Shown piece by piece: positions 1-5,474 of a stretch of 64,000 bases of DNA (positions within the stretch are counted from its first letter, which is position 1; each line of letters opens with the position of its first letter). This stretch comes from Escherichia coli. GTDB taxonomy: Bacteria > Pseudomonadota > Gammaproteobacteria > Enterobacterales > Enterobacteriaceae. Location: the NCBI RefSeq assembly GCF_965641715.1, contig NZ_OZ282453.1, one strand, 5' to 3'. The translations under genes and the position numbers were made by a program. The notes under the pieces were generated by a model. That model made no database searches. It was not told the origin of the DNA and worked only from the letters and a program-made list of their open reading frames with translations.

Positions 1-374
1 GACAAGACCATGCAGAACGCAAATTTTTTGTCGGTGGACTTGGTAACTACCAGTTTGGTTTTTACATGATTAATAACTCAAGGACAGCCAATGGCACCGA
101 TGGTCAGGCGTACATGGACAATAACGGTAACTGGCTTTGTGGCTCGCAAGTTATTCCTGGCAACTATGGCAATTTTGATTCCAGATATGTGAGAGATGTT
201 CGCCTGGGTACGCGAGTTGTTCAATTGATGGCGCGTGGTGGTCGTTATGAAAAAGCCGGACACGCAATTACCGGATTAAGAATCATTGGTGAAGTAGATG
301 GCGATGATGAAGCCATCTTCAGGCCAATACAAAAATACATCAATGGCACATGGTATAACGTCGCACAGGTGTAA
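1..374 (+). CDS. Silent alternative tail-fibre C-terminal segment, promoterless; frame is open from position 3, first Met at 66
   Basis: 102-aa track ORF ends ...RPIQKYINGTWYNVAQV, parallel to the C-terminus of the expressed tail fibre (...[17 protein letters not shown]); opposite strand to the expressed fibre and followed by its own assembly gene. Confidence 0.5.
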   Translation, partial: QDHAERKFFVGGLGNYQFGFYMINNSRTANGTDGQAYMDNNGNWLCGSQVIPGNYGNFDSRYVRDVRLGTRVVQLMARGGRYEKAGHAITGLRIIGEVDGDDEAIFRPIQKYINGTWYNVAQV

Positions 375-905
375 ATGATGCAGCATTTAAAAAATATTAA
401 GTCTGGAAATCCTAAAACGAAAGAACAATATCAGCTAACAAAGAATTTTGATGTTATCTGGTTATGGTCCGAAGACGATAAAAACTGGTATGAGGAAGTG
501 AAAAACTTTCAGCCAGACACAATAAAGATTGTTTACGATGCAAATAATATTATTGTCGCCATCACTAAAGATGCCTCCACGCTTAACCCTGAAGGTTTTA
601 GCGTCGTTGAGGTTCCTGATATTACAGCCAACCGCCGCGCTGATGATTCAGGAAAGTGGATGTTTAAGGATGGAGCTGTAGTTAAACGGATTTATACGGC
701 AGACGAACAGCAACAACAAGGCGAATCACAAAAGGCCGCATTGCTTTCCGAAGCTGAATCAGTCATCCAGCCGCTGGAACGCGCTGTCAGGCTGAATATG
801 GCAACAGACGAGGAACGCACACGACTGGAAGCATGGGAACGCTACAGTGTTCTGGTCAGCCGTGTGGATACGGCAAATCCTGAATGGCCACAAAAGCCTG
901 AATAA
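375..905 (+). CDS. Tail fibre assembly protein, alternate copy
   Basis: 176 aa; N-terminus [25 protein letters not shown] is a clear paralogue of the 177-aa assembly protein at 934-1467 on the other strand. Confidence 0.8.
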
Positions 906-933
906 AAATTAAGGCCCGCGATCGGGCCTTGTC

Positions 934-1467
934 TCATTCAGGTTGTTCGGGAAATGTTACTGGCAGGCTGGAGGTGTCTGTAGATTCGACTTTCTGCGCA
1001 TAGAGCATCCACTCGGTTAATTTTTGTTTATTCTCGTCGGAAATGATGCCCAGCCGTAGCTGTGAGTCCCATAGCTGGGTTTTATCCCTAACGAGCTGTA
1101 GCAGGCTTTGCTTTTCATTTTCCGCCTGCTGCCTCTGCTCTTCCTCGGTATAAGTTCGCTTTACCACTACGCCATCTTTGAACATCCATTTACCAGAAAT
1201 ATCAGCCCGGCGATTTGCTGTAATATCAGGAACCTCAACGACGCTTGCGCCTTCTGGATTAATTGCTGAAACATCCTTTTCAATACAAATAATAACGTTG
1301 TTGTGGTCATAGACCATTTTCAACGTATCAGGCTGAAAGTTCTTTTGTTCCTCATACCAGTTTTTCCCATCCTCTGTATAAAGCCATTTGATGTTAAATT
1401 GTTTCGTTAGCTGGTATTGCTCTTTTGTTTTAGGGTTGCCAGCAGTAATATTTTTTAAGTGCATCAT
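934..1467 (-). CDS. Tail fibre assembly protein (P2 gpG-like)
   Basis: 177 aa directly downstream of the tail fibre gene, same strand; Tfa-like N-terminus [20 protein letters not shown]. Confidence 0.85.
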
Positions 1468-1469
1468 AA

Positions 1470-3698
1470 TTAAATACTCCCCGCGTTATACCACGTCCCA
1501 TTAATGCAATACTGAATTGGCCTTGCCTGAGTTGTATCAATTAATTCATCACGGTTTCCGTTAACTGAACCCGTAACGACATAACCTGACCTGTCAGACC
1601 AGCCGGGACCATTCCATGTCTGAACAGATGACAGACCGCCAAGGCGAATACCTGTAATAAACCTTGAGTTACATTCTGCCTGCGTGTATGCACCAACATC
1701 TCCCGCAGAGGGTTTGCGGGTCGTGGTGTAAAACTCTGACCAGTTAGCCTCAAATCCATAACCATCACGCGCTGAACGATAAAAAATACCGCCGTTCCTG
1801 TAATTCACGCGGAACTGTACAGCAGGGCAGCTCCCCGTATTCATATTGAAGTGGAGGATTAATGTCGATGCACCGCTGATATCTGCATCATAAACACCGC
1901 TATTCCAGTTCCAGCCAACAGCTTTATCATTTGCAACCCTGCTTCCTGTTTGCCCTAAAGCAAATGCAGGCTGCTGGTTTTTCGTGTTGTAGTCTCTTCG
2001 CCAGCCAGGAGCATAAGCATCACCATGATTAATATAAGTGAATTGAGCGTTAGAGGTGCCGCCTCCGGTGGAAGTGCTTGGTGTTGTTACACGGATGGTC
2101 ATGGCACCTTTATTACCCATAACCTCAATAACGCAACCTGCAAGATGAATAGTTCCACAGCCAGTATCGGTAATAATTTTATTATTGCCGTATGACCATG
2201 AACATTTGCACATCCAGTATGGGTGATTGAATGCCCCTTGAGAATCCAGCCATTCAATCAATTGTGCCGTTGTCCAGTTCCCTGCCCCTGTACTAATAGC
2301 ACTGTGAAAAGCGCGACATGCACCAATATTTTTTGTGAAGGTATCTTTTCCTGGAATATCTGCGCCGTTCTGGTTTTTCTGTAATGCGCCAGAAGCCTGA
2401 TTTACCGTTTCTTGTAAACCGAGGTATTCGATAACGGCAGCAACGGTCGATTTCGCAAGAATATCCCGCCCGACTTTTGTCAGGGTTGCCAGGCTGGCGA
2501 CATCATTCCCCGTAAAATACGGAAACCTGTCTGCCGCAGTAGCAAGCCCGGCCAGCGCCGTCAGGGTGGCATCTTTCGGTTGCTTACCCGCAAGCGCGTT
2601 AGTCATGGTGGTCGCAAAATTCGGGTCGTTTCCCAGCGCCGCCGCTAACTCGTTCAGCGTATTCAGTGCGTCAGGTGACGAATCTACAAGGGCGGCAATC
2701 GCAGCCATAACGAAAGCCGTGCTTGCGATTTGGGTATTATTCGTTCCCTGTCGCGCAGTTGGCGTTGTTGGCGTTCCGGTCAGCGCAGGACTGTTTAAGG
2801 GCGCTTTCTTGTTCGTTTCATCCATTACCGCCTTAACCGCTTTCGATGTCGCGGCCAGTGTTTCAGACGTGCTGTTGGTGGCACTACTGAGCTGGACTAT
2901 CCCTTTTTGTGCCGTCGTGGCGTCCTGAGCGGTATATTTTGCGTTAGCAAGGTCATACGCGGCCTTTACTGCTTTCGGCGTTGCAGCCTGCGTTTCAGAC
3001 GTGCTGTTGGTGGCGCTACTGAGCTGAACTATCCCTTTTCGCGCAGTGGTAGCGTCCTGTGCGGTGTATTTGCCATTAGCCAGGTCATATGCCGCCTTAA
3101 CAGCCTTTGGCGTTGCCGCAAGCGTTTCAGACGTGCTGTTAGTGGCGCTGCTAAGTTGAACAAAGCCTTTTGCGGTCAGCGAGGCGTCCGGGTGACGTCG
3201 TGAGTGTTCATGCTCTTTCAGTTTGTCATCCACGTAATCCACTGTGGCCATTACCATGGTGTTATCCACGGTAAGCGCCACGGTGGCAGTGCTGGATACG
3301 GTCAGAATGGTGCGAAATGTTTGTGCACGTCCTGACCCTTCGGCAACGGTTGGCTTGTAACTTTCGGCAGTATTGCCTACTGCGATTAAATCGCCGTGCT
3401 CATCAAACACACCAATTTCCCGGATCCAGAATCCGCCCGTTTCTGGAGGAATAACCAGCTCCGCAATAATGCGGTTCTGATGTGTTGCGTCCAGGATGAC
3501 GCGATTAACAGTGTGTCGCCACACCTCATGCACCAGACGGGTCTGCTTACTGTCTGGTGTGGGCAACGTGCCGCCACCGTCGCCCACGGCCATATGAGTC
3601 AGGCGGACAGGCTTACCATCTGGCGCGGCTGCCTGAGCTAATTTTTTTGCACCCGTATCGGTGATAACGGTTTTAAATTTTCGTGTTGTGGTACTCAT
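1470..3698 (-). CDS. Tail fibre protein (P2 gpH-like)
   Basis: 742 aa; conserved fibre N-terminus, three internal 44-aa repeats ([10 protein letters not shown]...), C-terminus ...[11 protein letters not shown]; sits between gpI-like and assembly genes. Confidence 0.85.
2830..3215 (-). repeat. Three tandem 132-bp repeats (44-aa units) inside the tail fibre gene
   Basis: Motif gtttcagacgtgctgtt(g/a)gtggc recurs at 2860, 2992 and 3124, period 132 bp; protein repeat ...[13 protein letters not shown](L/Q)AATPKAVKA... Confidence 0.8.
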
Positions 3699-3700
3699 GC

Positions 3701-4231
3701 TTAATCGTCCGGATAAATGGTAATGACTTCACCGTCGTAAGTTGCTGCCGCCGCGAAAATATCTCCCGGGATCTCCTGAATGATATTCAGCCCTGTCATG
3801 TGGCGGCTGACCGGGCGGGCATCAGCAATCAACCGCTCCATTTCCAGATACATTTCCTCCGTCACGCCACTGTCCAGCGTGCCGACTTCAACGGTAAATG
3901 TTCCCGGTTCTCCGTCGAACTCCCACCACTCAGACACGCGAATGAGGTATCCCAGCGGCTCAATGGCCCGGCGCAGTGCGCTGATGGTCCCTTTGTGTCG
4001 GTGTATCAGCCATGCATCACGAATCACCTGTCGCTTTGTCTCTTCCGGCCAGTTGCGATCCCAGCGGTCAACGGAAAATGCCCAGGCGAGATAAGGCAGC
4101 AAATGCACCGGGCAGGTGTCCGGTGACCACAGCGTGTTGAGGTCTACCGGGATGTCTGTAATGCGCGCTCCGACAGCTTCGGCGCAACGCATGAAACGGC
4201 TGGCTGATGGCGGTAACAGTGAATTACTCAT
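3701..4231 (-). CDS. Baseplate/tail protein gpI-like; start moved to internal ATG at 4231
   Basis: Track ORF 3701-4264; the sequence from MSNSLLPP... resembles P2 gpI as I recall it (LLPYLAWAFSVDRWD motif); ATG at 4231. Confidence 0.75.
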   Translation of the reverse strand: MSNSLLPPSASRFMRCAEAVGARITDIPVDLNTLWSPDTCPVHLLPYLAWAFSVDRWDRNWPEETKRQVIRDAWLIHRHKGTISALRRAIEPLGYLIRVSEWWEFDGEPGTFTVEVGTLDSGVTEEMYLEMERLIADARPVSRHMTGLNIIQEIPGDIFAAAATYDGEVITIYPDD

Positions 4232-5120
4232 TGCGCCCACCTTCGCTGATGGTGAATGACTCACAGCGCGCCGCCTGTATGTCGCTGATGGCCAGATTCT
4301 GTGTGGGTTCGATTATCTCCACGCGTTGCACACCGTGCACATGCAGTGCGGCAGCAATGGCGGACAACGCCACGTCCTGACCGATAAGCCCCTGCTCAGC
4401 CAGCCACTTCCTGAACGACGATTCAGCCGCCGCCAGAATAGGTTCGGATTCCGGGCCGGGGTAAAAGTACAGTTTTGCATTCAGCCGCCATGTCACGATT
4501 CTGGCACTCTGTACGGTCAGGCGGTCGGCCACCGGGCGGGTATCCTCTGCATTCAGAACGGCGCGAACGGTATTAAGCAACGCCTCCGTTGCTGTGCCGT
4601 CGCCCTCAGTGGACAGGATGGAAACCGTCACGTTGGCCGGAGACGGGCTGATGGCCCGCGCATCGCGCACCAGACCGCTGGCGCTGCGTGCAAAATACTC
4701 GTATGCGCCTGACGGGCCAGCAACACTCAGACCATCATACGCCCGTTGCGCCCGCAGTCTCAGCGAGGTGTCGCTCTCCATCACCGCGTCGGTGGTATCC
4801 GTTGCCGGAGTGATAACCAGGCGCTTTGTGTTCATATTGCCCGCGAGGTTGTCCAGGTCTGTTCCGGTGCTGTGGCTCAACATGCAGGCGCGTGCGCCCT
4901 CGTTAACCCGCTGGCGTAACAGCATTTCACGAAACGACATGGTTTGAGCGATAACGTTCAGGGGTTCCGATTCCAGCTCCAGCGCGGCGGAGACGGCTTC
5001 ACGCTGTTCGGCGGGATAAGCCGCAATCATCATGGCCTTTGTGTCAGCCAGAATTGCTTCAAAGTCAGGCTCCGCGATGATGGCGGGTTCCGGTAACTGG
5101 GAAAGGTCAACGGCAGGCAT
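4224..5120 (-). CDS. Baseplate assembly protein gpJ-like
   Basis: 298 aa; position between W and I and size match P2 gpJ. Confidence 0.8.
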   Translation of the reverse strand: MPAVDLSQLPEPAIIAEPDFEAILADTKAMMIAAYPAEQREAVSAALELESEPLNVIAQTMSFREMLLRQRVNEGARACMLSHSTGTDLDNLAGNMNTKRLVITPATDTTDAVMESDTSLRLRAQRAYDGLSVAGPSGAYEYFARSASGLVRDARAISPSPANVTVSILSTEGDGTATEALLNTVRAVLNAEDTRPVADRLTVQSARIVTWRLNAKLYFYPGPESEPILAAAESSFRKWLAEQGLIGQDVALSAIAAALHVHGVQRVEIIEPTQNLAISDIQAARCESFTISEGGRNE

Positions 5121-5123
5121 GAT

Positions 5124-5474
5124 TTACTCCCTCAGCGTGATGGTTAATTCAACATTCTGCATGGTCTGCATGACAGTACCCGACAGCGTCACCCCGGCGC
5201 GGCCTCCTGCTTTCCAGACAACGTCGATGGCATCCAGGGCAATGCGGGGTTCCCATCGCGTCAGTGCAATCACGGCAGCACTCATGCATTGCAGACGCGT
5301 GGTGTTATTCATGGGTTCGTCAATTAAATCAGGCACAAGGCTGCCATATTCCCGTCGCATAACCCGGCTTGCCAGCGGGGTGATCAGGATGTCCCTGACT
5401 GACTGTTTCAGGTGCTCCATATCGTTCAGGTTTCCCGTCCCGTCCGGGTTCATTCCTGTGTAGCGGGTTGTCAC
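5124..5474 (-). CDS. Baseplate protein gpW-like (GPW/gp25 family)
   Basis: 116 aa; size and position between V and J. Confidence 0.8.
   Translation of the reverse strand: MTTRYTGMNPDGTGNLNDMEHLKQSVRDILITPLASRVMRREYGSLVPDLIDEPMNNTTRLQCMSAAVIALTRWEPRIALDAIDVVWKAGGRAGVTLSGTVMQTMQNVELTITLRE

Follow-up and report, generated by a model that had tools for sequence, protein, structure and literature searches.

The tail fibre gene at 1470-3698 of the window (the whole stretch of Escherichia coli DNA analysed here, 64,000 nt long) carries three tandem, in-frame modules of the PF03406 family. We read these three modules as the proximal shaft of the fibre, and the array that they make up as a spacer of variable length that also serves as a joint for exchange of the distal part, a reading to which we assign a probability of about 0.8. 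In this proposal, the units would be 44-residue modules of the proximal shaft in a fibre of the P2 gpH type, and homologous recombination between units at different positions would produce an in-frame fibre in which modules have been gained or lost. Because the unit is 132 nt long, a length divisible by three, and its core is conserved, such an exchange would always be in frame. It could occur either inside one gene or between the fibre alleles of co-resident prophages, and it would often bring in a different distal part as well; the array would then be a joint for swapping receptor-binding parts among P2-like, lambdoid and Mu-like fibres.

The fibre gene and its parts, from the N-terminal to the C-terminal end of the protein, are as follows.

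1470..3698, minus strand: tail fibre gene of the P2 gpH type, an open reading frame of 742 aa (stop codon at 1470-1472)
3240..3683, minus strand: N-terminal domain PF12571, aa 6-153 (Pfam, E = 1.4e-53), with at least 96% identity in 48 relatives from IMG/VR
3072..3203, minus strand: R1, the first unit, aa 166-209, whose first 13 residues are unlike those of the internal units
2940..3071, minus strand: R2, the internal unit, aa 210-253, in the 44-aa register and matching PF03406
2808..2939, minus strand: R3, the last unit, aa 254-297, which ends VMDETNK and joins the distal shaft
2436..2807, minus strand: post-array shaft segment, aa 298-421, common to P2, P88, Shae_phiSM and one lambdoid Stf
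2409..2434, no strand assigned: gix-like crossover site inside the fibre gene (aa 422-430), the 26-mer TTCTTGTAAACCGAGGTATTCGATAA, with 3 mismatches to Mu gixL
1473..2408, minus strand: receptor-binding tip now expressed, aa 431-742, Mu S'-like (phmmer against PDB 8ju3)

Tandem Repeats Finder reported one array, at 2828-3161, with a period of 132, 2.5 copies, 82% matches, no indels and a score of 444. Within it, a 98-nt core occurs three times, at 2828-2925, 2960-3057 (84%) and 3092-3189 (74%), and the spacing is exactly 132 nt. On the coding (minus) strand the array is in frame and comprises three 44-aa units at aa 166-297 (window 2808-3203), preceded by the N-terminal PF12571 domain and followed by the distal shaft and tip. 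The count at the DNA level comes to 2.5 copies (two full and one partial) because the first 13 residues of R1 and the last 7 residues of R3 differ, the latter reading VMDETNK where the other units have AYDLANG. PF03406, the curated Pfam family Phage_fiber_2 ("phage tail fibre repeat"), matched the whole protein in three stretches (E = 1.3e-61, 204.3 bits against a cut-off of 22), the best of which, aa 173-213, covers profile positions 1-41 of 42. With a score over the gathering cut-off, and as repeats of ~40 residues inside a phage tail fibre protein, the units belong to this family, and the match is far beyond chance. An earlier note on this DNA had described three tandem 132-bp repeats in the tail fibre gene, and the Tandem Repeats Finder array, the exact 132-nt spacing and the three PF03406 matches bear this out. 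The coordinates given there, 2830-3215, are correct to within about 20 nt, and the repeat peptide quoted there is also correct, with the qualification that the start of R1 and the end of R3 deviate as just described.

The setting of the array is that of a P2-like prophage. PF12571, the family "phage tail-collar fibre protein, N-terminal", is presumed to be the end that attaches to the baseplate, to judge from its name and its place in the protein. Open reading frames at 4224-5120 and 3701-4264 lie upstream of the fibre gene and one at 934-1467 lies downstream, giving the gene order baseplate J, baseplate I, fibre, fibre assembly gene, which is the same layout as P2 H/G/I/J. The gene has both features of the P2 gpH type, namely an N-terminal PF12571 domain and this late-operon gene order. 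In its 5' 1.2 kb, the gene has 96-97% DNA identity to the tail fibre genes of P88, 503458 and 520873, 95% to that of Xuanwuvirus P884B11 and 84.5% to P2 gene H, and the three-unit architecture is also found in P88, 503458, 520873 and P884B11 (95-97% identity), all of which were sequenced independently. P88 and Citrobacter phage Shae_phiSM match 78-84% of the window's first 25 kb, collinearly and at 95-96% identity, and the sequence in its far part is E. coli core chromosome (pta-yfcC). Because of these domains, the identity to P88 and P2, the 25-kb collinearity and the E. coli chromosome at the far part, we assign the gene to a P88-like prophage of E. coli (Xuanwuvirus, Peduoviridae), as its tail fibre of the gpH type.

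Distal to the array, PDB 8ju3 aligned almost gap-free to aa 422-742 (phmmer, E = 3.8e-201), and the C-terminal 320 residues of the fibre are nearly identical to the phage Mu S' tip. A tail collar fibre in PDB 9d93 gave a weak match to aa 324-443. Window positions 1-2434 belong to an invertible segment of the Mu G / P1 C type, on which the distal end of the fibre gene sits. Homology to P88 ends at 2396-2409, and the Mu S/S' chimera junction in PDB 8ju3 aligns to aa 422. Two fibre-assembly genes are opposed on the segment (934-1467 on the minus strand and 375-905 on the plus strand), and an alternative fibre-tip open reading frame, in frame 3 of the plus strand, is cut off by the window edge and ends at 374. 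As in P88 and Shae_phiSM, the invertase and the partner site must be situated outside the window, on the far side of position 1. Neither strand of 2500-3800 was found to have promoter-like or terminator-like sites, and the plus-strand open reading frames at 2566-2928 and 2907-3203 result from the repeat as by-products on the antisense strand. Just past the array, at 2758-2775, the plus strand has a perfect tandem duplication of 9 bp (GTTGGCGTT twice), which encodes part of a TPTTPT motif and is probably trivial.

We asked how old the units are and what keeps them alike. Aligned in codon register, the three pairs of units are 61-76% identical in DNA and 64-82% identical in protein. Adjacent units are 68% and 76% identical, with exact runs of 19-23 nt, and over all window unit pairs the longest exact runs in common are 17-23 nt. 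The pairs have dS values of 1.3-2.2 and dN values of 0.14-0.35, which correspond to a dN/dS of about 0.1-0.16. Because dS is high, dN/dS is 0.11-0.16 and the exact runs are short, the units are old duplicates held by selection on the protein, and not the outcome of a recent duplication. Per-codon synonymous entropy gave no convincing excess of DNA-level conservation in the unit core: synonymous variation is spread over the whole unit, and a low-entropy patch at codons 22-27 is accounted for by codon preference and by amino acids that have two codons. On these grounds, DNA-level selection on the core was dropped as a candidate. The window array is probably stable on short or laboratory time scales, because its units are too diverged for frequent slippage or RecA-type exchange, while arrays in relatives that have identical adjacent units would be less stable.

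Structure predictions for the unit were of low confidence. An AlphaFold2 monomer of aa 150-345, built with a 9-sequence alignment, had a mean pLDDT of 41, and a pseudo-trimer of three copies of aa 158-314 joined by Gly/Ser linkers had a mean pLDDT of 30; the sole consistent signal in these models, itself of low confidence, is a short strand (VQL) and then two helices in every unit. By SEQRES sequence, the Mu S/S' entries are the only solved structures that contain the unit, and no experimental structure covering the unit was found among solved structures. For Mu gp49, only the N- and C-terminal parts are modelled (PMC11915804), and rotary-shadowing EM has led to the suggestion that the Pf2 (PF03406) region is a globular bead (PMC3368898). 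We infer that the trimeric fibre gains a fixed increment in physical length with each unit, and that this has a bearing on adsorption.

We then compared the number of units among relatives. IMG/VR was scanned with the N-terminal domain only, which leaves the search unbiased as to the array, and 80 loci were obtained. Units were counted with an HMM built from the three units of the window, in a set of 49 complete fibre genes made up of the IMG/VR relatives and the window. Database proteins that match the N-terminal domain were unsuitable for unit counts, being mostly partial, and the IMG/VR loci were used instead. The N-terminal domain is at least 85% identical to that of the window in 45 of the 49 genes. 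All 49 keep a strict 44-aa register that starts at ~aa 166, and the units are distributed as follows.

1 unit: 9 of 49 genes
2 units: 18 of 49 genes
3 units: 10 of 49 genes, the window included
4 units: 9 of 49 genes
6, 7 and 8 units: 1 of 49 genes each

Among named phages, P2 and Citrobacter phage Shae_phiSM have 2 units, P88 has 3 and Mu S has 1. The complete E. coli genomes VTB96929v, CE20 and Z142-6 have 2, 4 and 5 units, respectively, which together with the window's own 3 gives 2, 3, 4 and 5 units in complete E. coli genomes. No array of more than 5 units was found in the complete genomes searched with the 8-unit array, and the upper end of the range is less secure because all arrays of 6-8 units come from IMG/VR contigs of draft-assembly origin. 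As a rule, though, assembly shortens repeat arrays by collapse and does not lengthen them. The C-terminal end of the last unit is of three types among the relatives and, to judge by eye, goes with the kind of distal part that follows. One IMG/VR locus (L023) has a four-unit array with a frameshifted last unit (…ATSKARNTKSSEVCL), and its open reading frame stops after 341 aa; the gene is a pseudogene, unless a sequencing error lies inside the array. Database proteins with a matching N-terminal domain are nearly all labelled "partial": at 160-310 aa, they stop within the array or shortly behind it. The fibre locus evidently breaks short-read assemblies, whether through the repeats, through the invertible segment or through the two together.

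Several pairs of genes show where such differences in number arise. Gene pairs with 99.2-100% identical flanks differ by whole units only, one or two in number. For instance, the 8-unit gene L015 and the 6-unit gene L012 have flanks that are 100% and 99.92% identical, and three identical units in the former stand against one in the latter. In L022 (3 units) and L045 (2 units), both outer units are 100% identical and the difference is the middle unit of L022, and in L001 a block of two units is exactly duplicated. Other genes contain hybrid units. The single unit of L040 equals unit 1 of L037 over nt 1-86 and equals unit 2 of L037 over nt 61-132 but for two scattered mismatches; because both matches overlap in the 26-nt stretch at nt 61-86, the crossover lies there. 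VTB96929v is 100% identical to the window from the start of the gene through 495 nt, the whole of R1 and on to nt 71 of R2, and past that point it continues with the last-type unit and distal part of another allele, which leaves it with 2 units where the window has 3. The pattern in L003 resembles that in VTB96929v, and R1 is identical at 132 of 132 nt to unit 1 of both. These hybrid units locate the crossovers to the unit's conserved core.

The distal parts are exchanged as well. The N-terminal domain of the window type is joined to 16 distal-module clusters among close relatives and to 20 among all relatives. More than one copy number occurs within 8 of the 10 distal-module clusters that have several members, and the Mu S'-like cluster to which the window belongs is found with 1, 2 and 3 units, a pattern that indicates that copy number varies independently of the distal module. 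The distal edge of the array, query positions 324-341, is where many E. coli matches begin or break off. The homology also reaches into a lambdoid fibre, Stf L084, which is 94% identical to the window gene over nt 660-1346 (687 nt), starting inside R2. This gene, at 2261-5434 of a lambdoid prophage in E. coli S1-NGR-02-A, encodes a 1057-aa side tail fibre adjoining gpJ and lom and has two PF03406 units. Its homology to the window runs past the gix-like site, and L084 is equipped with an invertible tip segment of its own as well as a recombinase gene. In lambda, exchange of side-tail-fibre DNA via short, diverged homology by phage recombinases has been demonstrated experimentally (PMC3945230). 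Homology that is short and diverged suffices for phage recombinases of the Rad52 type, and exchange of this kind is documented for side tail fibre genes (PMC3945230). According to references cited in that paper (PMC3945230), mosaicism of tail fibre genes has been on record since the early 1990s.

Altogether, these comparisons favour homologous or unequal recombination between units, in register and often between different fibre alleles, over replication slippage, because the exact runs in the units of the window are only 17-23 nt long. According to the earlier note, slippage or recombination can alter fibre length where fibre shafts contain tandem repeats, a claim that an invariant copy number in all relatives would refute. 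Copy number is far from invariant, at 1-8 units among relatives. The recombination half of the claim is supported by the whole-unit differences and the hybrid units, and the slippage half is weakened for the window array, whose units are diverged. A change in the length of the protein is shown by these counts, and a change in the physical length of the fibre would be expected to go with it.

We considered what the array might be for, if not a spacer in the first place. It is possible, if somewhat doubtful, that it is a recombination adaptor first, whose core provides portable homology for distal modules across P2-like gpH, lambdoid Stf and Mu S fibres, with change in copy number as a neutral by-product. 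Such a role would fit the 16-20 distal-module clusters joined to one N-terminal domain, the homology boundaries that fall inside units (after nt 71 of R2 in VTB96929v and from gene nt 660 in the lambdoid Stf) and the many E. coli matches that start or stop at query 324-341. It would also fit the use of short, diverged homology by Rad52-type phage recombinases and the documented exchange of stf (PMC3945230). However, the units have no clear sign of selection at the DNA level, with synonymous variation spread over its entire length, and the fact that purifying selection acts strongly on the protein shows that the units are needed as protein. A role as adaptor is, in any case, compatible with one as spacer. 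That the array is a dedicated evolutionary device, in which the core is kept for in-frame distal swaps and the number of units is then adjusted to the length of the distal part, with more of them where that part is shorter, strikes us as unlikely.

Alternatively, selection could match the number of units to the length of the distal module, the one making up for the other, and so keep the total length in a range that works for a fibre folding back along the sheath. Unit number and distal length are negatively correlated (Spearman rho -0.62 over 49 genes, IMG/VR L001-L050 and the window; rho -0.53, p = 0.035, over 16 distal-module clusters), in a sample that is small and phylogenetically non-independent and in residue counts, which are not physical lengths. 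The variance in total length is not reduced, however (SD 103 aa for total length and 104 aa for distal length). A given distal module also occurs with 1-3 or with 4-8 units. The trend is weak and not robust, and we regard length compensation as decidedly improbable.

We give still less credence to a contingency locus, at which frequent slippage within the phage population would programme heterogeneity of fibre length. Near-identical units, as expected of such a locus, are absent from the window, where adjacent units are 68% and 76% identical with runs of 19-23 nt, and the median identity of adjacent units among relatives is 77%. Moreover, the differences between units are mostly synonymous, contrary to what is typical of slippage loci, where repeats are homogenised. 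It is true that close genomes differ in copy number, that some relatives have adjacent units that are 100% identical and would be unstable (three in L015, a two-unit block in L001), and that an exact run of at least 25 nt occurs in 36% of adjacent unit pairs, but we hold the idea to be highly improbable. Finally, chance similarity or an assembly artefact in the window is excluded by the Tandem Repeats Finder score of 444, the exact 132-nt spacing, the three PF03406 matches and the presence of the same three units in the independently sequenced P88, 503458, 520873 and P884B11.

Our preferred reading of the array, as spacer and joint, concerns well-known components: the repeat family, the gene type and the mosaicism of tail fibres are all established, and the finding is an ordinary one that specialists would expect. 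It brings little new biology, and its practical value is modest. In the open-access literature, we found no paper on copy-number variation of PF03406 units in P2-like fibres. The array is a natural in-frame joint that tolerates 1 to at least 5 units (possibly 8), which makes it useful for the design of chimeric fibres in phage- or tailocin-based delivery, and it is a spot where short-read assembly and the annotation of prophage fibre genes tend to break.

Among known systems, the closest counterparts are P88 and P2 gpH, which have in common with the window the PF12571 domain, PF03406 units that start at ~aa 163-166, the post-array shaft and the gene order. P88 also has three units and is 96% identical in DNA, but its tip differs from the Mu S'-like tip of the window (aa 431-742), and its homology stops at ~2396. 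P2 has two units and is without an invertible tip, and its DNA identity is 84.5%. Fibres of the lambda Stf/StfR type contain the same repeat family. PF03406 ("Pf2") was in fact first identified in lambda stf, and lambda-type fibres have an N-terminal PF08400 domain (PMC3368898). The lambdoid Stf L084 differs from the window in its N-terminal domain, which is annotated "prophage tail fiber N-terminal domain-containing protein", and in the position of its units, which lie at ~aa 459-542 of 1057 aa, whereas those of the window lie at aa 166-297. Mu S/S' (PDB 5YVQ, 8JU3, 9KI1) resembles the window in having a PF03406 unit (aa 106-148), a near-identical S' tip and a tip carried on an invertible segment with a gix site, but it has a single unit and a different N-terminal part. 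Lastly, in the collagen-like prophage fibre proteins EPclA-D of EHEC, repetitive shaft segments vary from copy to copy by whole periods, as in the fibres compared here (PMC3368898). The length steps in EPclA-D are multiples of 3 or 7 residues, and some of these proteins have a PF03406 unit (PMC3368898). Their length variation resides in collagen and coiled-coil segments, however, whereas in the fibre described here it resides in the number of PF03406 units.
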